Shown: in pieces, positions 40,800 to 62,548 of the stretch
Position numbering within the stretch: the first letter of the stretch is position 1
Layout: the number at the start of each line of letters is the position of its first letter
DNA from: Kiritimatiellia bacterium
GTDB taxonomy: Bacteria > Verrucomicrobiota > Kiritimatiellia > RFP12 > UBA1067
Assembly: GCA_051884805.1 (NCBI GenBank)
Contig: JBJEWA010000110.1
Location: forward strand, 11,204 to 75,203
DNA length: 64,000 bases
Reading direction: 5' to 3'
Position numbers and translations under genes: made by a program
Notes under the pieces: model-generated
What the model was told of the DNA's origin: nothing
The model's database searches: none
The model's input: only the letters and a program-made list of their open reading frames with translations

Positions 40800-41561
40800 A
40801 TGAAAAACGTCATACCACTCATAGTCGCTGTCGTTCTGGGTCTGGTCGCTGTTCTTGCCGTCAACCGGACGCTGGCCAAGTCGGACAAGGGGCATTCCGG
40901 GAACAAGATCGTGGTCTTGGTGGCGAACGGAAACCTGAAGAGCGGGCATGTCGTCGGCAAGGAGAGCTTTCGCAGTGTCGAGGTTCCGCTGGCATATGCC
41001 CCGAAGCAGCACGTCCTCGGCGACCAGCGGATGTCCATCGTCGGGCAGATGCTCACACGGGACGTCGCCGCCGGCGACTACATCCAGTGGAATGACCTCG
41101 GTCAGTCCCGCGGAACCGGCGAATCGGTCGGCGAAGGCGAGTGGGCGGTCTCGGTCGGCTTTCAGAATGCGGATCTGGTCAAGATGCTCAAGCCCGGGGA
41201 CGAGATCGCCATCGTCGGGATGTTTGATGTCGCCGTCGAGAAGGCGGCGAAGTCGGCGGACGTCGACGCGGAGAAGACGATCGAGCACAAGAAGGTTACG
41301 ACCGTGCTGTTCCCGCAGATGCGCATCATGGAGCTGACCGATGCGGGCACCGTGCTCTTTTCCGTCCCGCCGCAGCAGGCCATGACGCTGCTGGCGGCGC
41401 AAGAGCAGGCGACGCTTTATGCGGCGTTGCGCCGTCCGCATGACGAAAAGGCGACGAATCGCAAGGACAGTGGCGTGTTCGACGGCACGGCGTTTGCGAA
41501 AATGCTTTCCGGGTGTCCGGAGATTACGATACCTGACAAGCCGTTTAACAAGATCAAGTGA
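40800..41561 (+). CDS. cpaB: Flp pilus assembly protein CpaB/RcpC
   Basis: N-terminal TM IPLIVAVVLGLVAVLAV. SAF-like KIVVLVANGNLKSGHVV...MLTRDVAAGDYI. Positioned directly before the secretin gene. Confidence 0.85.
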   Translation: MKNVIPLIVAVVLGLVAVLAVNRTLAKSDKGHSGNKIVVLVANGNLKSGHVVGKESFRSVEVPLAYAPKQHVLGDQRMSIVGQMLTRDVAAGDYIQWNDLGQSRGTGESVGEGEWAVSVGFQNADLVKMLKPGDEIAIVGMFDVAVEKAAKSADVDAEKTIEHKKVTTVLFPQMRIMELTDAGTVLFSVPPQQAMTLLAAQEQATLYAALRRPHDEKATNRKDSGVFDGTAFAKMLSGCPEITIPDKPFNKIK

Positions 41562-41571
41562 GGGGGGAGAG

Positions 41572-43131
41572 ATGAGGAACTTGCTTGCCGTTCTGCTTGC
41601 CTTGTCTGCCGGAGTGCTGTCTGCCGTGCAGAGGGTGACCATCGAAAAAGGCGGTGCCAAGGTGTTGGACCCGGGGTTCCGGGTCACGGCCTACAAGACC
41701 GGAATGAAGGGGATTGTGGGCGTGGAGGAGCTCGAGGGCGGCTCGCTCCGGGTGACGGGGCTGGGTGAGGGCGTGTGCAGTCTCAAGCTGATGGGCGACG
41801 GATCGATGGAGGAGACGTATGAAATCGACGTCGGCAGCGACCTGGCCCAGATTCAACGCAATCTGCAGGCCGAATTGGAGGATGTCGGGGGCATTGAGGT
41901 CGTGCGCATCGGGCGATCGCTTGTCCTGCGAGGGGAGATCAACGATCCCCGCGGGTGGCAGTTGCTGAAGACGACGGTGAAGGGCGCGGAGTACCGTGAG
42001 ATCGTCAGGGATCAGACGGTCTTTCGCGTGCAGGCTGACACTTTGAAGGACTTCCGCCAGCAGCTGAAGGATGCCGGATTCGTCATTACGGACAAGGTCG
42101 ATGACGCCAGTGCGGGCAAGCTCTTTGTCAAGTACGAGGGCAATCTGCTTATCGTCGCGGGCGTGGTTCACTCCCCGGGGGAGAAGGACCGGCTTGAGCG
42201 CATCGTCAGGTCCCAGGGAACCTGGCTCCGGATCGAGGGCGCGTCGTCGTCTGGACAGGAGGACTGGAAGACGGTTTGCCGGATGGACATCTCGGTGGAC
42301 AATTCGCAATTGCGGATGGATGTCGTATTGATCGGCTATGCCGAGACGGACGTCTCGAAATACGGTTCGTCCGACACTTTGCAGCTCGGCGGAGTGTTCC
42401 AGGGGCTGATCGACCTGTATTCCGGCCGGACGCGCCATGATAATTTCACCGTCAACGCCAGTTTGAACAGCACGTTGGGGTTTCTCAAGGAGAACGGAAT
42501 CGCCCGACACTCCATCGGGGGCCACATCTTCTTCAAGAACAACGATCCGGAGGTCCGCAAGCTCAAAATCGGGGGCACGCTGAAGGTCAAGATGCAGGGT
42601 GCGACTGCGGAAGGTGCGCCGACTCAGGATTTCGAGGACATCGAATACGGTTTCTTCATCGACAAGAAGCGGGCGGTCTTGATCGACGGGAAAAGCGTGG
42701 ACGTGGACCTGACAATCAAGCAGAAGACGCCGGAGGCGATGCCGGGAGGCTACGAAGAGGGATACGAGATCCACGAAAACGAGTACAATCCGTCCGTTGT
42801 CTGCCCGTTGGGCAAGACCGTCGTTCTCGCGGGTTACAGGAGCATGCTCGAGGAGAGCTCTCCGCCCTCTGGATTTCCGATTCTCCGGCATATTCCGATC
42901 GTCAACTGGTTCGTGTCTCAAGAGGGGAACCGGATTGAAAACATGAAGCTGATGATGCTGGTGAGCGTCAGGATCGCCGCCGGCGACGAGCCGGAGGCGC
43001 AGCAGGCCGTCTTGCCCTACGAAGATACGAAGAATCTGCCCGCAGAGGTCGAAATACCGAACGACAGACGTTTGGAAGGCCGCCGGAAGTGGCACGGCAT
43101 CATGTATTTCATGAACTGGTTTACCCCCTGA
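41572..43131 (+). CDS. cpaC: Tad-type secretin CpaC/RcpA
   Basis: Signal peptide MRNLLAVLLALSAGVLSA. BON/N-domains. C-terminal secretin motif GFPILRHIPIVNWFVSQ...KLMMLVSVRI. Confidence 0.88.
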   Translation: MRNLLAVLLALSAGVLSAVQRVTIEKGGAKVLDPGFRVTAYKTGMKGIVGVEELEGGSLRVTGLGEGVCSLKLMGDGSMEETYEIDVGSDLAQIQRNLQAELEDVGGIEVVRIGRSLVLRGEINDPRGWQLLKTTVKGAEYREIVRDQTVFRVQADTLKDFRQQLKDAGFVITDKVDDASAGKLFVKYEGNLLIVAGVVHSPGEKDRLERIVRSQGTWLRIEGASSSGQEDWKTVCRMDISVDNSQLRMDVVLIGYAETDVSKYGSSDTLQLGGVFQGLIDLYSGRTRHDNFTVNASLNSTLGFLKENGIARHSIGGHIFFKNNDPEVRKLKIGGTLKVKMQGATAEGAPTQDFEDIEYGFFIDKKRAVLIDGKSVDVDLTIKQKTPEAMPGGYEEGYEIHENEYNPSVVCPLGKTVVLAGYRSMLEESSPPSGFPILRHIPIVNWFVSQEGNRIENMKLMMLVSVRIAAGDEPEAQQAVLPYEDTKNLPAEVEIPNDRRLEGRRKWHGIMYFMNWFTP

Positions 43132-44804
43132 TGATGACGCTGGTTCTGCAGTTTCCGGACGGGCGGACTGAATGTCGCGAACTGCCGGATTCGGACTTCG
43201 CCTGGAACCTCGGCCGGGCCGACGGCTCCGATCTCGTGCTGGCCGCCGGAGACGTATCGCGCCGTCATGCGACGCTGTCGCGAATGTCCGGCACGCTCGT
43301 GCTGGCGGATGCGGAAAGCCGCGGCGGCACGTGGATGAACGGCGAACGCCTCGTCGCCCCGCAGGTGCTCGCTGCGGGTGATGAGTTTCGCGTGGGATCG
43401 TTCCGGCTGAGAATTGAGTCGCGGGTGTCGGCGGCGCATCCCGAACCCCCTCCGCCGGCCCCCTCCCCCGCCCCCGTTCCCGATTCCGTTCCCGACGACG
43501 ACTTCTCCGCCGCCGACATTCTCTACACGGACGAGTGCATGGTGCTGAAGCGCCGTCTGCACGAGCATATCCTTGGCGAGATGAACCTGACCGAGGACGC
43601 CCTCAAGGAGTTCGCCGACGAAACGACGCGCGCCAAGCTGGACGCGTGCGTGGACAGCGCCTTGCGGCAGTTTCGCCACGAATTGCCGGCACAGGTGACG
43701 TTGCCGGACTTCCGGCAGGCGCTGATGGACGAACTGGTCGGCTATGGCCCGCTTTCGCCGATTCTCCGGGACAAGGGCGTTTCGGAGATCATGGTCAACG
43801 GTCCCGAACGCATATTCATCGAGCGCAAGGGCCGTCTTAGGGAAACGGGCGTCCGATTCTACAACGAGCGTCATCTTATTCAGATCATCCAGCGGATTGT
43901 CGAGCCGCTCGGCCGTCACGTCGACGAGGCGAGCCCGATGGTGGACGCTCGCCTGCCTGACGGCAGCCGCGTCAACGCCGTCATCCCGCCGCTGGCCCTG
44001 GACGGCGCGTCGATGACGATCAGAAAGTTCGCCGACAAGAAACTGACGACGGAAGACCTCGTCGGCTTCGGATCGATGACGGAAGAGATGGCGGCGTTCC
44101 TTAAGGAGGCCGTGCGCGTCCGCAAGAACATTCTGGTCTCCGGCGGCACCGGCTCGGGCAAGACGACCCTGCTGAACGTTCTTTCCCAGTTCATTCCGGG
44201 TGGCGAGCGTGTCGTCACGGTCGAGGATTCGGCCGAATTGAAGCTCTCGCACCGGAATATAGTCCGGCTTGAGGCGCGCCCGGCGAACATCGAGGGCAAA
44301 GGGCGAATCGCCATTCGCGATCTCGTGATCAACTGCCTCCGCATGCGTCCGGACCGCATCATCGTCGGCGAATGCCGCGGCGCAGAGGCGCTTGACATGC
44401 TCCAGGCCATGAACACGGGGCATGACGGTTCGCTTACGACGGCGCACGCCAACAATCCGCGAGACGCGCTCTCGCGTCTCGAGAACATGGTGATGATGGC
44501 CGGTTTCGAGCTGCCGAGCTCGGCCATCCGCGAACAGATCGCTTCGGCCATTGACCTGATCGTGCAGCAGACGCGGCTCCCCGACGGATCGCGCAAGATC
44601 GTGAAGATAACGGAGGTGACGGGGCGTGAAGCGGACATGATTCTCCTGCAGGACATCTTCGTTTTCGAACAGGACGGATTCGATTCCGCCGGCAAGGTCC
44701 GGGGACGTCACACGGCTACGGGCAACATTCCCTGTTTCGTCGACGAACTGCGGAAAAGCGGCGACCTTCGCCTTGACATGTCGGTGTTCGTTCCGAAAAC
44801 ATGA
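43131..44804 (+). CDS. cpaF: CpaF/TadA secretion ATPase with N-terminal FHA domain
   Basis: TGATG overlap with the secretin stop. FHA: WNLGRADGSDLVLAAGDVSRRHATL...GGTWMNGERL. Pro-rich linker. Walker A GGTGSGKTT. VEDSAEL. TGHDGSLTTAHAN. Confidence 0.92.
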   Translation: MMTLVLQFPDGRTECRELPDSDFAWNLGRADGSDLVLAAGDVSRRHATLSRMSGTLVLADAESRGGTWMNGERLVAPQVLAAGDEFRVGSFRLRIESRVSAAHPEPPPPAPSPAPVPDSVPDDDFSAADILYTDECMVLKRRLHEHILGEMNLTEDALKEFADETTRAKLDACVDSALRQFRHELPAQVTLPDFRQALMDELVGYGPLSPILRDKGVSEIMVNGPERIFIERKGRLRETGVRFYNERHLIQIIQRIVEPLGRHVDEASPMVDARLPDGSRVNAVIPPLALDGASMTIRKFADKKLTTEDLVGFGSMTEEMAAFLKEAVRVRKNILVSGGTGSGKTTLLNVLSQFIPGGERVVTVEDSAELKLSHRNIVRLEARPANIEGKGRIAIRDLVINCLRMRPDRIIVGECRGAEALDMLQAMNTGHDGSLTTAHANNPRDALSRLENMVMMAGFELPSSAIREQIASAIDLIVQQTRLPDGSRKIVKITEVTGREADMILLQDIFVFEQDGFDSAGKVRGRHTATGNIPCFVDELRKSGDLRLDMSVFVPKT

Positions 44805-44817
44805 GGTGGCGGAAAAC

Positions 44818-45687
44818 ATGAGCGTATCCCTCACGGCACTGGTCTTTGCGGCGACATTCCTGGCGGCTTTCGTCTTCCTCGTCTCGGTGTATCGGACGCT
44901 GATCGGCCGGGCTTTGGCGGAACGGTCGGACTTCCAGGTCCTGACGCCGCTTCGGCGGCTGGTTTCGCCGGTGGCGCTGGTCCGTATCCGGTTCGCGACC
45001 GCCGGCGTCTTGGCCTGTACGGCCGTTCTGGCGCTGCTTTGGGGGCGGGTCGTGTCTCCCTGGGCCGTTGTCGCGCTGGGTGGCGTCGGCGCGGCTGTCG
45101 GTTATCGGCTGCCCATGGTTTGGTTCGCCTGGAAGCTCAAGAAGCGCCGGGAGGCGTTTGACGGGCAGGTGCTGAACCTGACGATGGGGCTTTTCGGCGG
45201 ACTGCGCTCCGGGCAGGCGTTGCCGCAGGCCCTGGCCGCCGTGGCCCAGCGCGTACCCGATCCGATGCGGGAAGAACTCGCCGTCGTCCTGCGCGAGAAC
45301 AAGCTCGGGCTCGAACTGTCCGAGTCGCTCGAACGGCTTCACGCGCGCATGCCCGGCGAGGACCTGCGGCTTCTGGTCACTTCGGTCCGGCTCACGCTGC
45401 AGACGGGCGGCAGCCTGTCGGAGGTGCTGGAACGCATGGTGGAAATGATCCGCTCGCGGACGGAATTCTACGAGAAGCTGAAGACGATGACGGCCCAGGG
45501 ACGCTTCGAGGCGATTGCGATGTCCCTTGCGCCGCTTGTCGTCTACGCGCTCCTGAGGGTTATCGATCCGGAGTTGATGAAGCCGCTGACGTCGACGGCT
45601 GCCGGCTGGTGCGCGATCGGCGGCATCGTCCTGCTCGTTTCCATCGGCTTCTTCATAATCAACAAGATTGTGACGATCGAGGTGTGA
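44818..45687 (+). CDS. tadB: Tad inner-membrane platform protein TadB (T2SSF family)
   Basis: GAGGTGG RBS. Multi-TM T2SSF-like protein directly after cpaF. Confidence 0.85.
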   Translation: MSVSLTALVFAATFLAAFVFLVSVYRTLIGRALAERSDFQVLTPLRRLVSPVALVRIRFATAGVLACTAVLALLWGRVVSPWAVVALGGVGAAVGYRLPMVWFAWKLKKRREAFDGQVLNLTMGLFGGLRSGQALPQALAAVAQRVPDPMREELAVVLRENKLGLELSESLERLHARMPGEDLRLLVTSVRLTLQTGGSLSEVLERMVEMIRSRTEFYEKLKTMTAQGRFEAIAMSLAPLVVYALLRVIDPELMKPLTSTAAGWCAIGGIVLLVSIGFFIINKIVTIEV

Positions 45688-45688
45688 C

Positions 45689-46582
45689 ATGGACGAGATG
45701 TCGTTCTGGACCTATCCGCTCGTTTTCCTGACGGTGTTCGCCTCGTATCTGATGGTGTCCGGCGCGCTGTCCGTGCCGCGTGCGCTGCGCGGTCCGGGCT
45801 GGGAGCGACTGCCGCTTTTCTACCGTCTCTTCCACCGCTATTTCGAGGCCGCGGCATTCGGAATCGGCGCGACCTTGGAGCAGGGCGATCCGGCGCAGGC
45901 CAGGCGCATTCAGGCGACGATTCTCAGAAGCGGCCTGCCCCTGACCGCAGCCAAGGTGCTGGGGGCGCGGGTGGTGGCGGCTCTCTCGGGCGGCATCGTC
46001 GCCTGTCTCGCCGTGTTTCTGCTGAGCGGAGCCGCCGACGTCGCCGTCGGCATCGGGCTGCTGGCCGCATTCCTCGGCTGGGTCTATCCGACGATGGTCG
46101 TCGAGCAGGTCGCCCAGGCGCGCCAGGTCGAGATCATCCGGTCGCTGCCGTTCGCCATCGATCTCATCGTCTCGGCCATGCGCGCTGGCCTTGATTTCGT
46201 GGCGGCCATACGCTACTACGTCTCCCTTGGCGAGCGCGGGGCGCTGTCGGTCGAGTTCGGCCTGATGCTGCGGCAGATGGAGCTCGGGAAGAGCCGCGTC
46301 GAGGCGCTGTCGGAAATGGCGACGCATGTGCAGACCGACGAGTTCACGGCCTTCGTCGGATCGGTTGCGCACGGCACCGAAATCGGCGCTTCGCTCATCG
46401 ACACGCTGAAGATCCAGGGCGAGGACATGCGCCGGGCAAGGTTCAATCTGGCCGAGCGCAAGGCCGCACGGGCGCCCTCGATCATGATCTTTCCCATTGC
46501 GCTCTTCATCCTGCCGGCCGTCGGCATCGTCGTCCTTGTGCCGGTGCTGATGCGTTTCAAGGCGGCGAAGGGGGGTGCGTAA
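45689..46582 (+). CDS. tadC: Tad inner-membrane platform protein TadC (T2SSF family)
   Basis: Starts 1 nt after the tadB stop. T2SSF-like LPFAIDLIVSAMRAGLDF with TM segments. Confidence 0.85.
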   Translation: MDEMSFWTYPLVFLTVFASYLMVSGALSVPRALRGPGWERLPLFYRLFHRYFEAAAFGIGATLEQGDPAQARRIQATILRSGLPLTAAKVLGARVVAALSGGIVACLAVFLLSGAADVAVGIGLLAAFLGWVYPTMVVEQVAQARQVEIIRSLPFAIDLIVSAMRAGLDFVAAIRYYVSLGERGALSVEFGLMLRQMELGKSRVEALSEMATHVQTDEFTAFVGSVAHGTEIGASLIDTLKIQGEDMRRARFNLAERKAARAPSIMIFPIALFILPAVGIVVLVPVLMRFKAAKGGA

Positions 46583-46583
46583 G

Positions 46584-48101
46584 ATGTCCTTTTCCCTCGT
46601 CTTCGCGGTCGGCGGGCCGACGGACGCCCCCGTGCCGGTTGTCGGCGAGCTCTCCGTGCTCGGGCGTTCGCGCAGCTGCGACATCAGGACGGCGCCTGAC
46701 AATCTTTCCATATCCGGTCGCCACCTGTCATTTGCCGCCGTCGCGGACGGCTTGGAGATGACGAATCTCAGTGCGCATCGCACGCTGGCGGACGGACATC
46801 CCCTCGCGCAGGGGGCGAAGGTCGTCTTGCGGGGCGGGGAACGCGTCGAGATCGGCAACGGCTGCGTTTTCGTGGTTCGGGTCGATGGTCTCGCCCCTGC
46901 TCAGGCTGTGCCGGAAGCGCAGGGCGACGAGACCGTGTTGCCGGAGGCGGAACCTCCGGCTGCGGCGCCGGCGGACGAGCCCGGACGCAACAGCCCGCCA
47001 GCGTCCGCAGGAGGGGCTTCCGCGGTCTCCGAGACGGTTTGGCAGCAGACGCAACTGGCGGGCTCCGAGGAAATCGAAAAGCTCAAGGAGCAGCATGCCA
47101 GGGCGCGGACGCGCAGGATGATGATGAAGGTCATGGGCGCGGCGCTGGTCTTCCTCGGCGTGGCGGCTTCGTATTATTTCTTCGTCCGCAAGATACCCGA
47201 GCGGGTCCTCTCGTGGCCATGCAAGGCGGACGGACAGTACGATCGGCAGCGGCAGCTCTTTGACGTCCCGTTCGGCAAGGGTGCGGTCGGCCTGGAATAT
47301 CCTGGCGATCCGTCCTGCCGCGTCGACCGCCAGACGAACGGCACGACGACGGTGACCACGCGTCTCGGCAAGTATCGGGACGTTCCCTATCGGCTGACGT
47401 TCTCCTGCCGTCAGGACGCGGACTTCCTGCACAAGGACCGTGCGCGGCTCTTCGCAGAGCTTCGCGAGCGCCTGGAGGAGCGCGGCGGGTGGAATTTTCA
47501 GGCCGTTTCTCCGGTCCAGTTCCTGGGTCCGGACAACGGCATACCGGCGATGGACGTCCAGTACTACCGGGCGGAACGCCAGGTGGATGACACGCAGCAG
47601 TGGTTTGGGCATCTCCTTTTCGTCGTGCATGGCGACTGCGCCATCACGGTCGCCCGTGAGATTCCTGCCGCGGAGGAATGGCGCGGAGGGCCGTTGCTCG
47701 CAGCCAACGTGCCGCTGCTCTTCACGAGCGCCGTCGTTAGCGGGCACTGGGAAGGGTCGCCCGCGGTCCGGGTCGAGTCGCCGACGCGGCTTCTTGCCGA
47801 GGCGGAGGGCCTGATGTCGGGCAAGGCCGTGTTCCAGTGGCAGGAGATCTCGTTTCTCATCCAGAGTGCGCTTGTCTCCAGTTCGGGACGCGGGCACGAT
47901 GGCGAAAGGGCGCTGGCGCTTCTGCGCCAGTTGCGGCTGCGCCAATCCCGCGAGTTCACGCGCCTGCGCATTCTCTGGGAGCAGCACCGCCGGCTGGGCG
48001 AGTCCGATGCCTGCAAGCGGACGATTGCCGAGGCGTTGAAGATCTTTTCGTCGCCGGACGACCATCGCAACCTGCTTCTGCGGAAAGGAGTCTGGGAATG
48101 A
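46584..48101 (+). CDS. FHA-domain membrane protein (N-terminal FHA, one TM, ~300-aa uncharacterised C-terminal domain)
   Basis: FHA: LSVLGRSRSCDIRTAPDNLSISGRHLSF...GCVFVV. TM: VMGAALVFLGVAASYYFFV. Starts 1 nt after the tadC stop. Confidence 0.85.
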   Translation: MSFSLVFAVGGPTDAPVPVVGELSVLGRSRSCDIRTAPDNLSISGRHLSFAAVADGLEMTNLSAHRTLADGHPLAQGAKVVLRGGERVEIGNGCVFVVRVDGLAPAQAVPEAQGDETVLPEAEPPAAAPADEPGRNSPPASAGGASAVSETVWQQTQLAGSEEIEKLKEQHARARTRRMMMKVMGAALVFLGVAASYYFFVRKIPERVLSWPCKADGQYDRQRQLFDVPFGKGAVGLEYPGDPSCRVDRQTNGTTTVTTRLGKYRDVPYRLTFSCRQDADFLHKDRARLFAELRERLEERGGWNFQAVSPVQFLGPDNGIPAMDVQYYRAERQVDDTQQWFGHLLFVVHGDCAITVAREIPAAEEWRGGPLLAANVPLLFTSAVVSGHWEGSPAVRVESPTRLLAEAEGLMSGKAVFQWQEISFLIQSALVSSSGRGHDGERALALLRQLRLRQSREFTRLRILWEQHRRLGESDACKRTIAEALKIFSSPDDHRNLLLRKGVWE

Positions 48102-50536
48102 GCCTTCTGTCGCGAAAGGCGACGGCGGACGAGCTTTCGATTCGCCTGGAGCGCGATGGCGTCGTCCTCTACGAGTCGACGTCTTCGGCCTTGCCGCTGC
48201 CGCTGAAGATCGGACGGGGAGCGGACTGCGCCTGGCGCGTGCCGGACGACGAGCGGTCGGTGAGTTCGCGCCACGCGGAGATCTTTCTCCGGCGCAAGGG
48301 CCTTTTCGTCAAGGATCTCGGCAGTCGCAACGGACTTTACGTGATGGGCGCACGCGTCGTCGAACGGCGGCTTGCGAGCGGCCTTCAGGTGAGCCTCGGG
48401 TCCTGCCGCCTGCTGGTCGAGAAAAGCCGCGCCGGCACCGGCGCGCGTGCGCGGCCCTTTCATCGGCTCGAACGGCTCAACGGCGAATCGGCAGGCGTCT
48501 TCTACGACCTCGTGAAGGCATCGACGGTCATCGGGTCCGGTGTGACGGATGGAATCCTGTGCTCGGACCTGCTCGTCTCCAAACGTCATGCGGAGATCGT
48601 CCGCAAGAGTGACGACACCTGCTGGATCCGGGACCTTGGCAGCCGCAACGGCACGCAGGTGAACAAGGTCGCGCTCAAGGACGCCGACCGCATGCTCCGG
48701 GACGGCGACGTGGTCTCGGTGGCGGACGTGGAGTTCAAGTTCAGGGACCGGCATTTCGAGCATGCGGGCGGACATCTCCTCGCCAAGCTTTGCGTGGCGC
48801 TTGTGACGGCGGCCGTCTGCGGCTCGGCGTACTTCGTGTGGCAGACGCTCTCGCCTTCGGCGACGTCGGTCATCCGGAACGCCACGCGCTGCGAAAGCGC
48901 GGGTTTGTTCGACGAGGCGCTGAAGATTCTCGAAACGGCGTCCGTTGCCCGCGGCGGCGAGTACTACCGTGACGAGGTCGCCCGCAAGCGCGGGGAAATC
49001 GAAATCTGGAAGAACACGGTCGACACCTGGCGGAAAGTGCGCCAACAGGTCGCGGGACGCGCCTGGGTTTCCGCAAGCAAGAATCTCGGTGCGCTCCTGA
49101 ACGCCAGCACCGAACGCTGGGGCTGGAATACGATGGACGCCCAGCAGGAGAAGCTCAAGGCCCGCAAGCTCAAGGAGCTGGTCGATGTCTTTCTGGCGGC
49201 GCGAACGGCGCTTGGCGGCACGTTCGCCGAAGACGAGGAGGGCGATGAACGGGCCGCGCTGAATCGGCTTCTGGTCGAAATGGACCGCGCGTTGCGCGAC
49301 CCGGCCTGGACGGATGCCATTCCCGCGGGTCCCTTGCGCGGCGACATGGCCGAACAGGCGGATGCCGTTCGCGAGGTGATTGCCGATCTTGACAGGATCG
49401 CCCGGACGCTCGTTCAGGTGCGGGTGAGCGGCCGGCAGGACCTGGACGGACTGCTCAAGCTCAATGAGAGCCTGCCGGTGCGCATCGGCGAGCTGGAGGC
49501 CGTCATCAGGCGCAATTCGGCCCGGGACGCGGAGCGGCGTGCGGCGGCCGAAAGGTCGGGACGCGTGTTCGTGACTTCTCCGATCGTCAGCCGGAACTGC
49601 GAGAAGTACCTGCCGACGCTCCGCGCCTTCCTCGTCTCCGGAGAAACGCTGGCGGAGAACGTCCGCCGGCTGGCGTCCGGGAGCTACGGTCTGACGCGCG
49701 AGATGCCCCTGCCGTCCGAAGGGCAGTGCGCCATTCATCCGGAGTTCGGTGAGATCCGGCGCAGCTACCAGATCGTCAACGCGCGGCTGTGCGGCGAGGT
49801 CGAGTCGTCCGTACGCGACCAGCTGTCCCGTCTCAGGGACGTCGGCCTGGACGCGAACGGACCGCTGCCGGCGTGCCTTGCCGACTTCCTTGACGAGGGC
49901 TTCCGCAATGCGGCGCTCGACTGCGACGCGTTCTCGCATCCTCGTCCGCATCTCCCCCGCACCGAACCGTGCGGACGATATGACGCCCTGCTCGGACTCG
50001 AGACTTTTGCCGACTATCTGCGGGAAATCGACGGCTCGCGGGAACTGCGCTGTGCGATGGACGGGTCGAGGCCCGTGCCGTCCGTCGTCCGCGCGACCGC
50101 GCTCCTGCGGCAGGCGGAGCGCTTCTCCCGTTTCGCGGCCTCCTCCTATGTCCGCCGGCTGATCGCCGAACCGACGGCAACGAACGTCCTGCGGGAGGCG
50201 GCCCGCATGACCTCCGACATCGACTCGAAACGCGCGTTGCTCGTCGAACTCCTCTGGAACGACGATTCCCCGGCGCTGCGGCGTCGGATTGTCGCCCGCG
50301 CACTGGCGATGGCGTTTGACGACAAGGGCTCGCTTGGCGACGATGCGCCGCTCGGCGTGCTCGACGACCTGCGGGCGCTCGGCCGCTCGGTCGCTGCGCT
50401 TAGGCGCAAGATCGAGCAGGATCCGGACCGCGTGGACGAATACCGGGCCGAAATTCTCAAAATCGCCATTCCAGGCCTGAACGGGGCGAACGCCATCTGG
50501 GAACAGGTGTCGAAAAAACGGGGGGGCTCGCGTTGA
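48098..50536 (+). CDS. Tandem-FHA membrane protein (two FHA domains, one TM, ~560-aa helical C-terminal region)
   Basis: ATGA overlap. FHA1: LKIGRGADCAWRVPDDERSVSSRHAEIF...GSRNGLYV. FHA2: TVIGSGVTDGILCSDLLVSKRHAEIV...GSRNGTQVN. TM: LCVALVTAAVCGSAYFVW. Confidence 0.85.
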   Translation: MSLLSRKATADELSIRLERDGVVLYESTSSALPLPLKIGRGADCAWRVPDDERSVSSRHAEIFLRRKGLFVKDLGSRNGLYVMGARVVERRLASGLQVSLGSCRLLVEKSRAGTGARARPFHRLERLNGESAGVFYDLVKASTVIGSGVTDGILCSDLLVSKRHAEIVRKSDDTCWIRDLGSRNGTQVNKVALKDADRMLRDGDVVSVADVEFKFRDRHFEHAGGHLLAKLCVALVTAAVCGSAYFVWQTLSPSATSVIRNATRCESAGLFDEALKILETASVARGGEYYRDEVARKRGEIEIWKNTVDTWRKVRQQVAGRAWVSASKNLGALLNASTERWGWNTMDAQQEKLKARKLKELVDVFLAARTALGGTFAEDEEGDERAALNRLLVEMDRALRDPAWTDAIPAGPLRGDMAEQADAVREVIADLDRIARTLVQVRVSGRQDLDGLLKLNESLPVRIGELEAVIRRNSARDAERRAAAERSGRVFVTSPIVSRNCEKYLPTLRAFLVSGETLAENVRRLASGSYGLTREMPLPSEGQCAIHPEFGEIRRSYQIVNARLCGEVESSVRDQLSRLRDVGLDANGPLPACLADFLDEGFRNAALDCDAFSHPRPHLPRTEPCGRYDALLGLETFADYLREIDGSRELRCAMDGSRPVPSVVRATALLRQAERFSRFAASSYVRRLIAEPTATNVLREAARMTSDIDSKRALLVELLWNDDSPALRRRIVARALAMAFDDKGSLGDDAPLGVLDDLRALGRSVAALRRKIEQDPDRVDEYRAEILKIAIPGLNGANAIWEQVSKKRGGSR

Positions 50537-50736
50537 AGGACGACGGTCGCAACGAAGGCGGATCCGTGCTCATGGAGTACCTCGTCGTCACGATGGCGGT
50601 GGCGCTTCCGCTTGTCGTCCTCTGGCATACGCAGATTTACGACTCGACGGAGGGTTGCTACCGCGGCGAGATAGGATTGGGGTTGCAGGCGATGTTTCAG
50701 CGGGTGCTGGCACACGTCGCCCTGCCGATTCCGTAA
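50533..50736 (+). CDS. Small Flp/TadE-like prepilin (67 aa)
   Basis: TTG start overlapping the upstream stop (TTGA). The leader, then G-SVLM-EY-LVVTMAVAL, fits the Flp G/xxxxEY processing motif. Confidence 0.6.
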   Translation: MKDDGRNEGGSVLMEYLVVTMAVALPLVVLWHTQIYDSTEGCYRGEIGLGLQAMFQRVLAHVALPIP

Positions 50737-50752
50737 ACAAGAAGGGAAACCG

Positions 50753-51106
50753 ATGAAAAAAGACCGCAAGATGAAATGTCGAATTCAACGGGCCAAGCGT
50801 TCCGCGCTCGGCCGTGTCCTCTGTCGCCTGGCGGGCGACGCGGCCGGCGCCGTGATGATGGAGTACATCGTTCTCGCCGTGCTGCTCGTCGCCGCGACCG
50901 TCGGCATCGTCGTCCTCTTCGGGCGCTACATGCGCGCCGAATGGTACACGGCCATGCTCGCGATGATGGGCAAGACCGACTCCGCCGCCGCGAACCAGGA
51001 GACGATGCAGGGCAATGTCAAGCAGAATGCCGAAACTGTCAACAACCAGGGCAACACGATTGACGGCGGCAGCAATTCGGGCACGCAGCATACGATGGCC
51101 GAATGA
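50753..51106 (+). CDS. flp: Flp-family pilin with long leader and Asn/Gln/Thr-rich C-terminal tail (117 aa)
   Basis: AG-AVMM-EY-IVLAVLLVAATVGIVVLFG matches the Flp motif. Tail: NQETMQGNVKQNAETVNNQGNTIDGGSNSGTQ. Confidence 0.8.
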   Translation: MKKDRKMKCRIQRAKRSALGRVLCRLAGDAAGAVMMEYIVLAVLLVAATVGIVVLFGRYMRAEWYTAMLAMMGKTDSAAANQETMQGNVKQNAETVNNQGNTIDGGSNSGTQHTMAE

Positions 51107-51636
51107 AGCCCGCCGTTCTTCTCCTCTGCCTGCTCGTGCCGTGGCTTGCGCTGCTGGCCTGGCGGGACTGCCGTGACCGTTGCCTGCCGAACGTCCTGAC
51201 GCTCGGCGGCGCGACGGCCGCGCTGGTCTGCCGCTACGCCTTCGGAGGGGGAGCGGTCGGGAATGCCGGCTTGCTGGGAGGCGTGTTCTGCGGACTGTTC
51301 CTCCTGTTGCCGTTCATCCTTCGTGCGGCTGGCGGCGGCGACGTCAAGATGCTCTTTGCCGTCGGTTGCGCGACGGGCGTGACGCGGACGATGGACGTCA
51401 TCCTCTTCACCTCGCTGGCCGGACTTGGACTGATGGCGTTCATGCTTTTCTGGGGAGCGGCGGACGGACGGCGCCTGAAGCATTTTCTGCGTTCGCTCTT
51501 CGACTGGCGCTACGACCGTGCCGCCGGACGGGCCGCCTTGCCGCCGAAGGATCACGAGCGGAGCCGAGTCCCGTTCGGCGTGGCAATCGCCGCCGGAACG
51601 GTCTTTGCTCTGGCATGGGAGGCGTCGGTCGGATGA
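51103..51636 (+). CDS. cpaA: Prepilin peptidase TadV/CpaA (A24 family)
   Basis: ATGA overlap. Multi-TM protein. Catalytic-type Asp contexts WRDCRDRCLPN and AAGGGDVKML. Confidence 0.85.
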   Translation: MKPAVLLLCLLVPWLALLAWRDCRDRCLPNVLTLGGATAALVCRYAFGGGAVGNAGLLGGVFCGLFLLLPFILRAAGGGDVKMLFAVGCATGVTRTMDVILFTSLAGLGLMAFMLFWGAADGRRLKHFLRSLFDWRYDRAAGRAALPPKDHERSRVPFGVAIAAGTVFALAWEASVG

Positions 51637-52388
51637 GTCGCCGCGGAACCGTGCTGATGGAAACGCTGCTGACGCTGCCGCTTCTGGCGGCGTTGGCCTT
51701 CGCCATTGTGCAGTTCTCGCTGGTCTGGTATGCGCAGCTGATGACGCATTACGCCGCCTTCAACGCCGCGCGTGCCGCGCTCGTCTACAACCCGTCGGAA
51801 TACCGGACCAACGTCAACGGCGTGGTCGTCTTCAAGACCTCCTCCGGACCCTGCTGGCAGGCGGCCGTACGGACGCTTGCCCCCGTGAGCTTCAGTCCTG
51901 CCGGCGGCAGCTCGAAGCTGACGGCCGGAGGCTGGTTCTTCCCGGATGCGGACGGAAACCCAACCCACCTTTTGCCGTACGCCTCGCACATTGGCGCGCA
52001 AGTGCGCCTGCTCGCGCACGACACGGACGCGTCCTACGGGGAAGACGGCGACACGCAATCGCTGGCCTGCGAGGAGGGAGGAGGGTATGTGAAGGTCTGC
52101 GTCGAGTTCGACTTTCCGCTCGTCGTGCCCGTAATCGGCAAGATGCTTGCCTATTTCCAGCACGTGGGCGATCCGGGCTATGGCGGAGCGACGCCAGCCG
52201 ACGACTGGCAGGTCACGGGCTGGCACGCGCCGTCGACGGGGAATGAAAAGCTCGCCGAAATCCGGTCGGCACATCGGCTCGGCACGGACTACCTGACGCT
52301 GCACGCATTCTGCGTCCTGCCGAAGCCCTACTTGACGAATGGCTTTGCCGTCCGCGACACCAAGGCCGACGAGGAGGCGCTCCAATGA
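51633..52388 (+). CDS. tadE: TadE-like pseudopilin
   Basis: ATGA overlap. N-terminus RRGTVLMETLLTLPLLAALAFAIVQF is the TadE-type motif. Confidence 0.75.
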   Translation: MSRRGTVLMETLLTLPLLAALAFAIVQFSLVWYAQLMTHYAAFNAARAALVYNPSEYRTNVNGVVVFKTSSGPCWQAAVRTLAPVSFSPAGGSSKLTAGGWFFPDADGNPTHLLPYASHIGAQVRLLAHDTDASYGEDGDTQSLACEEGGGYVKVCVEFDFPLVVPVIGKMLAYFQHVGDPGYGGATPADDWQVTGWHAPSTGNEKLAEIRSAHRLGTDYLTLHAFCVLPKPYLTNGFAVRDTKADEEALQ

Positions 52389-59852: not shown

Positions 59853-60914
59853 ATGCAGGACAACAATTCGTTTCTGACGCTGTTCCTTCAACCGGTGGCG
59901 GAATATCTCGGTGACGACACCGTCAGCGAGATCCTGATCAACGGGCCCGCATGCGTGTACGTCGAACGCAAAGGCAAGCTGGAGGAGGCGCCGGCGAAGT
60001 TCGTGAGCGAACCGGCCCTGAAGGCGGCGGCCGCGAACATCGCCAAGTCGGTCGGACGAATCCTCGACGAGATGCATCCGCAGCTTGACGCTCGTCTCCC
60101 GGATGGCAGCCGCGTTCATGCGGTAATTCCGCCGCTCTCGCGGGTCGGAACGGTCATTGCGATCCGCAAATTCAAGAAGGATACGCTCACCGTCGACAAG
60201 ATGCTGGCTTTCGGCAGCATGGACGAAAAGCTGCGGCGGCTCGTCCGCGCCCTGGTTCTCCTGCACAAGAACGTGATCGTGTCGGGGGCGACTAGCTCCG
60301 GCAAGACCTCCGTTCTCAATGCCTTGAGCTCCTTCATTCCCGGGAACGAGCGCGTGCTGGTCATCGAGGACGCCAGCGAGCTTCAGCTTCAGCAACGGCA
60401 CGTCGTGCCGTTCGAGACGCGCAAGGCGGACAAGAACGGACAGGGCGAGGTGACGATTCGCGATCTCATCCGTTCGGCGTTGCGGCTCCGCCCCGACCGT
60501 ATTGTCATCGGCGAGATTCGCGGCGGCGAAGCGCTCGATCTGCTGCAGGCGCTCAATACGGGCCACGCCGGCTCGATGAGCACGATTCACGCGAACTCGC
60601 CGCTGGATGCCTTGAGCCGCATTGAGACCTGCGCGCTCCTGAGCGGCATCGACATCCCCCTGGCGGCCCTTCGCGCTCAGGTCGCGAGCGCCATCGGCGC
60701 GGTCGTCCATACGGCGCGGCTTGCCGACGGTTCGCGCAAGGTCGTGTCGGTTTCCGAAGTGCTTCCGCTCGACGGCGGCGACTATCGCGTCCGGGAGCTG
60801 CGCCGTTGGAAAACGGAGTCCATTTCGCCTGACGGCACCGTCTGCGGCGTTTTTGCAACCGGCGACGCGCCCTCGTTCGCCGAAGATGCCCGCATTGCCG
60901 GCATCGAACTGTAA
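59853..60914 (+). CDS. Second, short CpaF/VirB11-like secretion ATPase (no FHA domain)
   Basis: ILINGPACVYVERKGKL. Walker A GATSSGKTS. VIEDASEL. DRIVIGEIRGGEALDLLQALNTGHAGSMSTIHAN. Confidence 0.88.
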   Translation: MQDNNSFLTLFLQPVAEYLGDDTVSEILINGPACVYVERKGKLEEAPAKFVSEPALKAAAANIAKSVGRILDEMHPQLDARLPDGSRVHAVIPPLSRVGTVIAIRKFKKDTLTVDKMLAFGSMDEKLRRLVRALVLLHKNVIVSGATSSGKTSVLNALSSFIPGNERVLVIEDASELQLQQRHVVPFETRKADKNGQGEVTIRDLIRSALRLRPDRIVIGEIRGGEALDLLQALNTGHAGSMSTIHANSPLDALSRIETCALLSGIDIPLAALRAQVASAIGAVVHTARLADGSRKVVSVSEVLPLDGGDYRVRELRRWKTESISPDGTVCGVFATGDAPSFAEDARIAGIEL

Positions 60915-60925
60915 GGTTGCCGGTT

Positions 60926-62548
60926 ATGGACGTTTCTCGTATGCCCAAGGAGGGCGACCGGTTCGGCAACTGGATTATCGAGCGTACGCTTGATAAGGGC
61001 GGGATGGGACAGGTTTATCTCGCTTATAATCCCGATCTCGGGAAATCCGAGAAGGTTGCGCTGAAAGTCCTTGATCCGACCGTGGCCGAACGGGATGCTG
61101 ATTTTGTCAAGCGATTCTACCAAGAGGCATCCATTGTATTCAAGACGCATTGTCCGCACCTTGTGTCGATTCACGATGCGGGACGTGATGCTTCTTCGGG
61201 TTGCTACTATATCGTCATGGAGCATCTTGGCGGCGGTACGCTGCGCGACCGGATTCGGAGCCGGGGCCGCATTCCGTGGCGGGAGGCGCTGTCCGTCGTC
61301 CGGTCGGTCGCCGTGGCCCTTGCGGCCGTCGCCAAGCGGAACTCCGTCCATCGCGACATCAAGCCGGAGAACATCATGTTCACGGCGGACGGGGTTGTCA
61401 AGCTGGCGGACTTTGGCATCGCCAAGGCGGCGCAGGATGACGTGCCGGACAATGCCGATCCGTTGAAGACCCGCGCCTTGCAGATATTCGGCACGCCGTC
61501 CTATATGTCGCCGGAGCAGATGTCCGACGCTTCCAATGTCGATGCCCGCGCCGACATCTGGAGTTTGGGCGTCGTCCTCTTCGAGATGCTCGCCGGCGCA
61601 AGGCCCTATCCCGCGCAGGATCTCGTTCAGGCCGGGGCGTTTCTGCTCTCGCCGCAGCCTTTCCCCGACATCCGCACGTTTAAGGCCCCCGTCATGGTCG
61701 GTGCGCCGCTACCGGCGGAAGAAGCCATGCAGACTCAGGCTACGGTGGCAACGCTGGCGATGTGCGCGGATGCCGTGGAGGTTCCCGACGAAGTGGCCGA
61801 CCTGTTGGCCCGAATGTGCGACAAGGATCTTGGCCAGCGCATCGCCACGAGCGAAGCGGTGATCGAGGTCATCGACCGACTGCTGAAGGATTCCGATTCG
61901 ACCTCGGCTGAGGCTCCCGCTGCGGCACGGCTCGCGTCCGCGACGCGGCACGCATCCGTTTCGAGGCAGCCGCACACGGGGCGGAAAAGATGGTTGCTCC
62001 GGATTGCCTGTGCCGCTCTTGCCGTGATTTTGGGCGTACTTGGCGCTTTTGTGCTTCGGCAGCCGCATCCGCCTGCCACCTCGGCCCCCGTGTCGCCCAA
62101 TCCGACCAATCGGCCTGCGTCTAAGGTCCAGGGGACGGCGGCAAACGCGAAAACGGCCGTCTCGGGTAATGTCATGGCGAAGCCCCCGCAGCCGCTCCCG
62201 CCGGTCGCACCGACCGTCTCTCCCGCTCCTCCGTCAGGCCCGACGACGGCGGTTCTCCGGACGGTGTCGCAAGTTTCGGTATTCCAGCCGCAGCGCGGAA
62301 GCATCGCTTCGGTCCTTTCGCAGTTGGATGCGGAGATTGGCAAAAAGCCCGTCCGTCTCAAGGTGTCGCTGTCGGCCTTGGCGCAGCTAAAGGACTTGTC
62401 GGTCGAGCGCTACGAACAGCAGCTGCTGGTTCCGGCGATAGAACGTTTGCAGATGTCCGGAGTGAGCTTTTCTCTCGTGCCTGGTCCGGGGAAATATGGC
62501 TCGGTTGTCCGAGAGCTGGCCAGACGATTCGGTTGTGACCTTGATTGA
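60926..62548 (+). CDS. Hanks-type Ser/Thr protein kinase, single TM, Pro-rich linker and small extracytoplasmic C-terminal domain
   Basis: GGMGQVY, ALKVL, HRDIKPENIMF, DFGIAK, GTPSYMSPEQ. TM: LLRIACAALAVILGVLGAFVL. Confidence 0.92.
   Translation: MDVSRMPKEGDRFGNWIIERTLDKGGMGQVYLAYNPDLGKSEKVALKVLDPTVAERDADFVKRFYQEASIVFKTHCPHLVSIHDAGRDASSGCYYIVMEHLGGGTLRDRIRSRGRIPWREALSVVRSVAVALAAVAKRNSVHRDIKPENIMFTADGVVKLADFGIAKAAQDDVPDNADPLKTRALQIFGTPSYMSPEQMSDASNVDARADIWSLGVVLFEMLAGARPYPAQDLVQAGAFLLSPQPFPDIRTFKAPVMVGAPLPAEEAMQTQATVATLAMCADAVEVPDEVADLLARMCDKDLGQRIATSEAVIEVIDRLLKDSDSTSAEAPAAARLASATRHASVSRQPHTGRKRWLLRIACAALAVILGVLGAFVLRQPHPPATSAPVSPNPTNRPASKVQGTAANAKTAVSGNVMAKPPQPLPPVAPTVSPAPPSGPTTAVLRTVSQVSVFQPQRGSIASVLSQLDAEIGKKPVRLKVSLSALAQLKDLSVERYEQQLLVPAIERLQMSGVSFSLVPGPGKYGSVVRELARRFGCDLD

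Follow-up and report, generated by a model that had tools for sequence, protein, structure and literature searches.

Gene organization of the Tad cluster

The 64,000-nucleotide stretch of DNA analysed here (positions 11,204 to 75,203 of contig JBJEWA010000110.1, assembly GCA_051884805.1, from a Kiritimatiellia bacterium) is referred to below as the window, and coordinates given without a locus or contig name are counted from its first nucleotide. It carries one Tad (type IVc pilus) gene cluster that spans from approximately 40.8 kb to 62.5 kb on the + strand. Directly after tadC, this cluster includes two open reading frames (ORFs), ORF1 and ORF2, whose products carry forkhead-associated (FHA) domains, a single transmembrane (TM) segment and a large C-terminal domain (C-domain); these two proteins are the subject of this work. 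The genome is represented by a 2.86-Mb assembly in 142 contigs that is 89% complete. CpaB, a secretin, a CpaF-type ATPase, TadB, TadC, Flp pilin, an A24 peptidase and TadE/TadG-like pseudopilins are found together in the cluster, which identifies it as a Tad locus. Its genes are as follows:

40800..41561, + strand, CpaB/RcpC homologue (Pfam, NCBIfam)
41419..43131, + strand, secretin (Pfam; longest ORF)
43089..44804, + strand, FHA::CpaF motor ATPase with an N-terminal FHA domain, class III architecture
44773-45687, + strand, TadB platform protein (Pfam)
45689-46582, + strand, TadC platform protein (Pfam)
46584..48101, + strand, ORF1, 505 residues: FHA domain, disordered linker, TM segment, C-domain
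48098..50536, + strand, ORF2, 812 residues: FHA1, FHA2, TM segment, helical C-domain
50533..51106, + strand, two Flp-type prepilin ORFs of 67 and 117 residues
51103..54865, + strand, A24 prepilin peptidase, TadE-like protein (51633-52388) and TadG-like protein of 826 residues
58599-59792, + strand, PP2C phosphatase
59853-60914, + strand, second CpaF/VirB11-type ATPase, lacking an FHA domain
60917-62548, + strand, Hanks Ser/Thr kinase

Two genes without assignment stand between the gene for the TadG-like protein and that for the PP2C phosphatase. The longest ORF of the secretin overlaps the end of cpaB by approximately 140 nt (41419-41561), and the true start of this gene is probably farther downstream than the start given above.

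The stop codon of tadC ends at 46582 and the ATG of ORF1 is at 46584, so that the two genes abut; the sequence ATGA at 48098-48101 is common to the stop of ORF1 and the start of ORF2, and the TGA of ORF2 (50534-50536) overlaps the TTG (50533) of the ORF encoding the 67-residue Flp-type prepilin. On the basis of this arrangement of start and stop codons, tadC, ORF1, ORF2 and the first pilin gene are likely to be translationally coupled, as had been proposed in a first-pass annotation made from the sequence alone. That annotation also tied the two proteins to Ser/Thr phosphorylation, and the Hanks kinase and the PP2C phosphatase encoded in the same cluster agree with this view.

Domain architecture of ORF1 and ORF2

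The description of ORF1 given in the first-pass annotation, i.e., one FHA domain, one TM segment and a C-domain of approximately 300 residues, coincides with the results obtained with Pfam and with the hydrophobicity profile, and the C-domain comprises 304 residues. The features of ORF1 are:

46656..46856, + strand, FHA domain (residues 25-91; Pfam)
47034..47075, + strand, juxtamembrane motif T151-x4-T156-R-x-A-S-x-E-E-I (alignment)
47130..47186, + strand, TM helix (residues 183-201; hydrophobicity, model)
47187..48098, + strand, C-domain (residues 202-505), ending in a conserved FSSPDDxR motif

The FHA domain scored 25.7 bits against PF00498 (cut-off 20.7), and the signature for phosphothreonine binding is kept throughout the family, since G27 is present in all 105 relatives, R28 in 99, S44 in 96 and H47 in 98 of them. 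Following the FHA domain, a linker that is predicted with low confidence and is otherwise variable is closed by the juxtamembrane motif, approximately 27 residues ahead of the TM helix. T156 is present in 104/104 aligned relatives and T151 in 90/105. FHA domains usually prefer a hydrophobic residue at position +3 from the phosphothreonine; T151 fits this docking preference, because 66 of the 105 relatives have Met or Leu at +3. T151 and T156 are the most likely candidates for a kinase target and an FHA docking site. Only one strongly hydrophobic segment was found in the protein (residues 183-201, Kyte-Doolittle 1.98).

The AlphaFold2 model of ORF1, obtained with the 105-sequence alignment, has a mean pLDDT of 90.7. 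It shows an FHA sandwich (residues 1-101), a low-confidence linker (109-154) and a long helix (161-201) in which the TM segment lies; the C-domain is formed by a beta-rich part of ten strands and three helices (221-386), followed by a five-helix bundle (400-500) with pLDDT values of 95-99. When 1.84 billion representative proteins were searched exhaustively with this C-domain using HMMER, the matches amounted to 272 clusters at 50% identity, of which 246 had E <= 1e-10; in the full-length matches the ORF1-type domain is C-terminal and is preceded by 180-660 residues. One homologue of ORF1 from another genome of the same genus (genome G020, L012:12597-13811, - strand) is 404 residues long and has no FHA domain, although the juxtamembrane segment, the TM helix and the C-domain are all retained. 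Because this relative lacks the FHA head, the C-domain, the TM helix and the juxtamembrane part appear to be the indispensable portion of ORF1.

Regarding ORF2, Pfam, the hydrophobicity profile and the structural model agree on two FHA domains, one TM helix and a C-terminal region of 564 residues that is entirely helical in the model, in line with the helical region of about 560 residues that had been noted previously. Its features are:

48206..48400, + strand, FHA1 (residues 37-101; Pfam)
48476..48751, + strand, FHA2 (residues ~127-218; Pfam)
48788..48841, + strand, TM helix (residues 231-248; helix 227-251 in the model)
48842..50533, + strand, C-domain (residues 249-812), all-helical

The two FHA stretches together scored 100.5 bits against PF00498, and ORF2 also matches the Pfam family Yop-YscD_cpl. 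The signature residues for phosphothreonine binding are canonical in FHA1 (G39 and R40 in 35/35 relatives, S56 in 31/35, H59 in 32/35 and N78 in 33/35). FHA2 has conserved residues S161, H164, S182, N184 and T186; after the invariant G146, however, 27 of the 35 relatives have Ser and none has the canonical Arg, so that FHA2 may have another mode of binding. As in ORF1, there is one strongly hydrophobic segment (residues ~227-248, Kyte-Doolittle 1.83). The AlphaFold2 model, built from 35 sequences, has a pLDDT of 88.7 and consists of two FHA sandwiches, the helix 227-251, and approximately twenty helices over residues 255-810, with no other element in the C-domain. The latter contains the conserved motifs W-x-W-N, G-x-YD-x-x-LGIE and IPGDP, as well as two conserved cysteines, Cys544 (97% of the 35 relatives) and Cys609 (86%).

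Membrane topology

The first-pass annotation considered both proteins bitopic, with the FHA domains in the cytoplasm and the C-domains outside of it. This topology was evaluated as the positive-inside signal over the two families, counting Lys and Arg within 15 residues on each side of the TM segment. The 105 members of the ORF1 family have on average 5.87 of these residues on the N side and 2.13 on the C side, the N side being richer in 101 of them; the corresponding means for the 35 members of the ORF2 family are 2.94 and 1.94, with more on the N side in 22 relatives and more on the C side in 7. The mean Kyte-Doolittle value over the 19-residue segment is 2.37 for the ORF1 relatives and 2.10 for the ORF2 relatives, and a second hydrophobic segment was found in none of the former and in three of the latter. 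FHA domains depend on cytoplasmic kinases for their ligands. Because of the charge bias and of this requirement, an orientation with the FHA domain inside and the C-domain outside is predicted with strong support for ORF1 and with moderate support for ORF2. The conservation of Cys544 and Cys609 fits with the location of the ORF2 C-domain in an oxidising compartment. The proposal that both proteins are essentially cytoplasmic adaptors, with hydrophobic segments that do not span the membrane or with a reversed orientation, would agree with the moderate flank-charge bias of the ORF2 family; it is very improbable in view of the hydrophobicity values, the near absence of a second hydrophobic segment, the strong bias of the ORF1 family and the need of the FHA domains for ligands made by cytoplasmic kinases.

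The C-domains represent unannotated families

It had been stated that neither C-domain could be matched to a family by eye, and database searches gave the same outcome. No Pfam match was obtained for either C-domain in the window proteins, and Pfam runs on every member of both families gave nothing consistent: weak TPR_14 matches appeared in 4/31 ORF2 relatives and a match to Lpp-LpqN at E 0.06 in one ORF1 relative, while a weak ESX-1_EspG match in one relative was rejected as it falls in a low-complexity N-terminal stretch. NCBIfam matched ORF1 and ORF2 in their FHA regions only. Sequence searches of the PDB with profiles of 3, 22 and 31 sequences gave only coiled-coil or chance matches to the C-domains, the best of them at E 1.9e-4 with a designed coiled coil. 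When the full models were compared with the PDB using Foldseek, only FHA domains were present among the 50 matches listed per model, and no alignment among these exceeded 133 columns. Comparison with viral structures gave only weak phage 'lipoprotein' matches (one at E 1.4e-4 with a root-mean-square deviation of 14.5, another at E 8.6e-4 with a TM-score of 0.52 over 169 columns), which were considered uninformative.

Related sequences were recovered mainly through profiles. An initial scan of genome contigs for related loci found no relative, and word-indexed searches with a single C-domain found one relative each; profiles were needed to obtain more. Both C-domains are unannotated families that are new here.

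Conservation of the module and its association with one CpaF subclade

Of 24 loci examined, taken from metagenomes and from 20 genomes across the phylum, 22 show the gene order CpaB-secretin-FHA::CpaF-TadB-TadC-ORF1-ORF2, and the fixed position of the pair after tadC supports the earlier idea that both proteins are part of the Tad apparatus. At least eleven genes are arranged as in the window on two metagenome contigs, whose ORF1 and ORF2 homologues are 35-47% identical to those of the window. In an even sample of the window's phylum, Verrucomicrobiota (PVC group), the profile of the ORF2 C-domain detected 49/401 genomes (12%), belonging to 31/184 genera, and within the genus of the window it detected 4/37 genomes. 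For 20 ORF2-positive loci, approximately 20 kb each was fetched to determine the gene order; 18 of them have CpaB, secretin, CpaF, TadB, TadC, an ORF1-like and an ORF2-like gene in this order, followed downstream by pilin, peptidase and pseudopilin genes, or by PP2C and the second ATPase, sometimes with the kinase. A gene for a 67-residue pilin is located directly 3' of the ORF2 homologue in most related loci, and the genes for PP2C, the second ATPase and the Hanks kinase recur beside the module. Two spot-checked matches of the HMMER search with the ORF1 domain also stand after TadC, and in the one spot-checked locus of sufficient length the ORF1-type gene precedes a gene with two FHA domains. 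The identity of the C-domains across the phylum is 20-45%. Because both the sequence and the order are kept in many other genomes, ORF1 and ORF2 are a conserved module and not a chance occurrence.

One variation of the downstream region was found in a genome of the same genus (genome G034), in which a gene whose product joins a Hanks kinase to BspA-type leucine-rich repeats (L011:13927-16008) is located directly after the ORF2 homologue and a 78-residue pilin-like ORF, replacing the pilin/peptidase block.

In the first-pass annotation, co-occurrence of the pair with the fusion of an FHA domain to CpaF was put forward as a check. A search with the CpaF of the window gave matches in approximately 190 of the 401 phylum genomes, and most of these matches begin at query residues 13-40 and thus take in the FHA head. 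The FHA::CpaF fusion is thus common in the phylum; most of the genomes that have it are devoid of the ORF1/ORF2 pair, and the fusion alone is not diagnostic of the pair. The CpaF matches form two groups, one 55-79% identical to the window protein (E <= 1e-184) and the other 45-51% identical. A tally of the two search tables revealed that the ORF2 domain is present in all 46 genomes with a CpaF of 55% identity or more to that of the window; conversely, only 3/49 ORF2-positive genomes are without such a CpaF, and these correspond to a weak match, a solitary gene and a fragment at a contig end. Since all 46 genomes of this subclade carry the ORF2 domain, the pair is inherited together with a single CpaF subclade, and the proposed co-occurrence stands for this subclade and fails for the fusion in general.

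The architecture of the window's CpaF is that of class III CpaF, described as FHA, intrinsically disordered region and CpaF, which a published survey reports mostly from Betaproteobacteria (PMC12019362); here, matches were found in approximately 190/401 genomes of a phylum of the PVC group. The same paper (PMC12019362) describes no partner FHA membrane proteins; in the phylum of the window, only one subclade has ORF1 and ORF2 as partners.

A second Tad-like system is present in the genome of the window, where contigs C124 (~16-19.6 kb) and C65 (1.3-4.4 kb) each hold a part of it (loci L208 and L209). On one of them lie the genes for CpaB, for a further FHA::CpaF that is 48% identical to that of the window, and for TadB; on the other, a TadC-like gene stands ahead of the gene for an FHA-TM protein of 428 residues (P0160), which belongs to the Myxococcota-type family described below.

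Relatives in Myxococcota and the Kil apparatus

The closest known relatives of the pair, overlooked in the first-pass annotation, are the FHA proteins found in the same position in the Kil system of Myxococcus (PMC8460266). The Kil apparatus of M. xanthus is a Tad-like killing machine whose motor, KilF, is an FHA::CpaF fusion (PMC8460266, PMC12428579), as is the motor of the system studied here. Kil cluster II encodes MXAN_4649 (FHA, listed as 'PrgH-like') and MXAN_4648 (FHA and TPR) beside KilH, KilG and KilB (PMC8460266, supplementary file 1), so that two FHA proteins accompany the TadB/TadC homologues in the same way in which ORF1 and ORF2 follow TadC. The function of the Kil FHA proteins is uncharacterised in this literature, although a signalling role has been proposed for them (PMC8460266, PMC12428579); it has also been reported that Kil systems are devoid of TadG, RcpB and TadD (PMC8460266). 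The hosts differ, since Myxococcus is a predator and the bacterium studied here belongs to the PVC group and is not a known predator.

Relatives were sought in a sample of 301 Myxococcota genomes, centred on an Anaeromyxobacter record that was among the matches to an MglA peptide. The profile of the ORF1 C-domain gave weak matches (E 8e-6 to 8e-3) in 7/301 genomes. From the six that were fetched, four are FHA proteins of 429-481 residues encoded directly after CpaB-TadB-TadC; another (L195) follows TadB-TadC without a CpaB match, and in the vicinity of the sixth (L196) no Tad gene was detected. An FHA-TM gene is located directly after TadC in the Myxococcota loci L194, L195, L197, L198, L199 and L222, and the C-domain of this family was found in 9/9 large (8.4-13.4 Mb) Myxococcota genomes tested. 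When the full-length families were compared with hhalign, the ORF1 and Myxococcota families aligned with a probability of 99.5% (E 7.5e-23, 435 columns), a value to which the FHA domain contributes; with the C-domain of ORF1 alone the probability was 91% (E 1e-6) and the alignment covered only the last 63 residues, i.e., a helical hairpin ending in the motif F(S/P)xxDDxR, while the beta-rich periplasmic part of ORF1 gave no alignment. The comparison of P0160 with the Myxococcota family gave 99.2% (E 9e-20, 371 columns). Given the shared FHA-TM-C-domain layout and C-terminal hairpin, ORF1 would be a remotely related, divergent member of a post-TadC FHA-TM family common to the Kil-like Tad systems of two phyla. 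FHA::CpaF-type Tad systems of two distant phyla thus share an FHA-TM protein encoded after TadC.

The case of ORF2 is different. A 9.8-Mb Myxococcota genome (L222) has the order CpaB-TadB-TadC, followed by a 1092-residue FHA protein with the Myxococcota-type C-domain and by a 588-residue FHA-TM-TPR protein (P0161), an order that matches the published layout of Kil cluster II (PMC8460266); the equivalence of these two proteins with MXAN_4649 and MXAN_4648 is suggested by gene order and domain content. P0161 is, like ORF2, encoded by the second FHA gene after TadC and has a similar FHA-TM-helical layout; however, it has one FHA domain instead of two, and the helical domain of ORF2 is larger. Comparison of the latter with P0161 gave an hhalign probability of 2.7%, and the profile of the ORF2 C-domain found only coiled-coil-level matches (E 2.6e-4 to 0.01) in the 301 Myxococcota genomes. 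ORF2 is thus an analogue of the FHA-TM-TPR protein in position and architecture only, and, of the two phyla searched (that of the window and Myxococcota), its C-domain was found only in the former.

A gene for a family-2 glycosyltransferase, and not a second FHA gene, comes after the post-TadC FHA-TM gene in several Myxococcota genomes of intermediate size (L194:10507-12066 and L197:10228-11730). Extra copies of the FHA protein (~535 residues, with the Myxococcota-type C-domain) were also seen in large Myxococcota genomes, at G605:C1:3560461-3561183 and G653:C1:8324203-8324922 (L220 and L221), with no Tad genes within 10 kb on either side.

Possible role of ORF1 and ORF2

The architecture, conservation, gene order, topology bias and co-inheritance with one CpaF subclade described above were observed directly, and from them we infer, with an opinion tilted modestly in favour, that ORF1 and ORF2 are inner-membrane components that form a phosphothreonine-gated scaffold of a Kil-like Tad (type IVc) machine with an FHA-bearing CpaF motor. 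Phosphorylation would be brought about by the Hanks kinase of the cluster, which would write phosphothreonine marks that the PP2C phosphatase would erase; T151 and T156 of ORF1 would be the prime candidate sites. The canonical FHA domains, i.e., those of ORF1, ORF2 (FHA1) and CpaF, would be the binding partners that read these marks, and their reading may assemble or release the ATPase or ATPases at the TadB/TadC platform. The two periplasmic domains could form a scaffold around the platform, reaching toward CpaB and the secretin.

GspL and GspM of type II secretion systems and PilN and PilO of type IVa pili link the cytoplasmic ATPase to the periplasmic parts of their machines. They likewise cross the inner membrane once and have their genes next to those of the platform, and we propose that ORF1 and ORF2 are their functional analogues, which would do the same job coupled to a phosphorylation switch. 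The resemblance is one of function and position, since GspL/GspM and PilN/PilO show no relation to the pair in sequence or predicted fold, are devoid of FHA domains and have no link to phosphorylation.

A more specific version of the scaffold, which we put forward tentatively, is that the pair represents an undescribed phosphothreonine-gated alignment complex of Tad pili, or 'clutch', with FHA heads and two new periplasmic folds. Such a complex would dock FHA::CpaF and the second ATPase on the platform only once the kinase has marked the juxtamembrane threonines of ORF1. If this were the case, the same principle would explain the FHA proteins of the Myxococcus Kil machine.

Several observations weigh against a phosphothreonine-gated scaffold. 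Given that the phosphate-binding Arg is missing from FHA2 of ORF2, at least one FHA module may act without phosphothreonine, and the FHA head is at times dispensable, as in the ORF1 relative of L012. In addition, loci L054 and L061 carry a solitary ORF2-like gene away from Tad genes, and the topology signal of ORF2 is moderate. The C-domains may also have a known periplasmic fold with another function, given that the Foldseek lists were filled with FHA domains.

The same pair of proteins could instead be sensors or regulators of the cell envelope, whose periplasmic domains would respond to a cue from a surface, from contact or from the envelope and signal inward to the kinase, the phosphatase and the ATPases; the pair would then not be needed for pilus assembly, and would act in a manner akin to the TagQRST-PpkA-Fha1 pathway of type VI secretion systems (T6SS). 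In T6SS, phosphothreonine controls assembly or firing, and a Hanks kinase (PpkA), a PP2C phosphatase (PppA) and one or more FHA proteins (Fha1/TagH) are likewise encoded with a membrane nanomachine. T6SS Fha1 is soluble, whereas the FHA proteins described here are membrane-anchored, have big periplasmic domains and accompany a motor ATPase that itself bears an FHA domain. The T6SS family TIGR03354 matched the pair over the FHA region only (25.5 and 59.6 bits), far below its cut-off of 120.25. A sensory role agrees with the kinase and phosphatase of the cluster, with large and fast-evolving periplasmic domains (20-45% identity) of the kind typical of sensors, with the signalling role proposed in the Kil literature (PMC8460266, PMC12428579), and with the ORF2-like gene of L054, which stands beside PP2C alone. 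We consider it doubtful as a complete explanation, in that a placement between tadC and the pilin genes with overlapping codons, together with co-inheritance in 46/46 genomes, is more like that of stoichiometric machine subunits. Sensing and scaffolding are not mutually exclusive.

The first-pass annotation also raised the possibility that the pair functionally replaces TadZ/CpaE, as a hub for recruitment or localisation, and/or TadD/RcpB. No TadZ_N match was found in 20 genomes searched, a search run without a positive control, so that its silence, which extends to the genome of the window and 18 other genomes carrying the module, shows little. A replacement would agree with the lack of a Pfam match for the other unassigned genes of the cluster, and with the report of Kil systems without TadG, RcpB and TadD (PMC8460266). 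Nevertheless, this role is unlikely: neither ORF1 nor ORF2 has a ParA/MinD-type ATPase or TadZ_N domain, a P-loop or a receiver-like domain, and TadD and RcpB are outer-membrane proteins, for which a protein anchored in the inner membrane would be an improbable direct substitute.

Another explanation is that ORF1 is a true homologue of the inner-ring protein YscD/PrgH (SctD) of type III secretion systems (T3SS), forming a closed ring around the Tad platform. The overall layout is alike, as SctD has an N-terminal cytoplasmic FHA fold, a single TM segment and a large periplasmic domain; the Pfam family Yop-YscD_cpl matches ORF2 and the Myxococcota post-TadC proteins above the cut-off, MXAN_4649 is listed as PrgH-like (PMC8460266, supplementary file 1), and one YscD and one T3SS FHA structure are among the Foldseek matches listed. 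However, the similarity is confined to the FHA fold and ORF1 itself has no match to Yop-YscD_cpl. The model of its C-domain shows two five-stranded beta units with helices and a helical bundle, instead of three alpha-beta-beta-alpha-beta motifs, and no ring-building motifs are predicted in it. YscD and PrgH are not known to have the residues that bind phosphothreonine, whereas these are kept in FHA1 of ORF2 and in the FHA domain of ORF1 (GR/SxxH). For these reasons we regard this homology as quite improbable.

The pair bears on how the Tad pilus is switched on, and on how its single motor is held at the platform without the PilMNOP or GspLM of related machines; the literature has repeatedly flagged the Kil FHA proteins of Myxococcus as unexplained. 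The pair is not categorically new, given that FHA proteins in Kil-type clusters and an FHA-bearing CpaF have been published (PMC8460266, PMC12019362); what is new is the link between the PVC and the Myxococcota proteins, and the candidate phosphorylation sites. Two unannotated domain families are defined, with 272 clusters for ORF1 and a presence in 12% of the phylum genomes for ORF2. The residues T151 and T156 of ORF1, FHA2 of ORF2 with its missing Arg, and Cys544 and Cys609 provide specific positions to probe, that are relevant to work on Kil and on class III CpaF.

The G+C content is lower in the region of the Tad cluster (0.60-0.66, and 0.59-0.67 over the interval 34000-64000) than in the interval 8000-34000 (0.67-0.72). 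Lateral spread is compatible with this lower G+C content and with the presence of the module in only 4 of the 37 genomes of the genus, which suggests that the Tad region is an acquired island.

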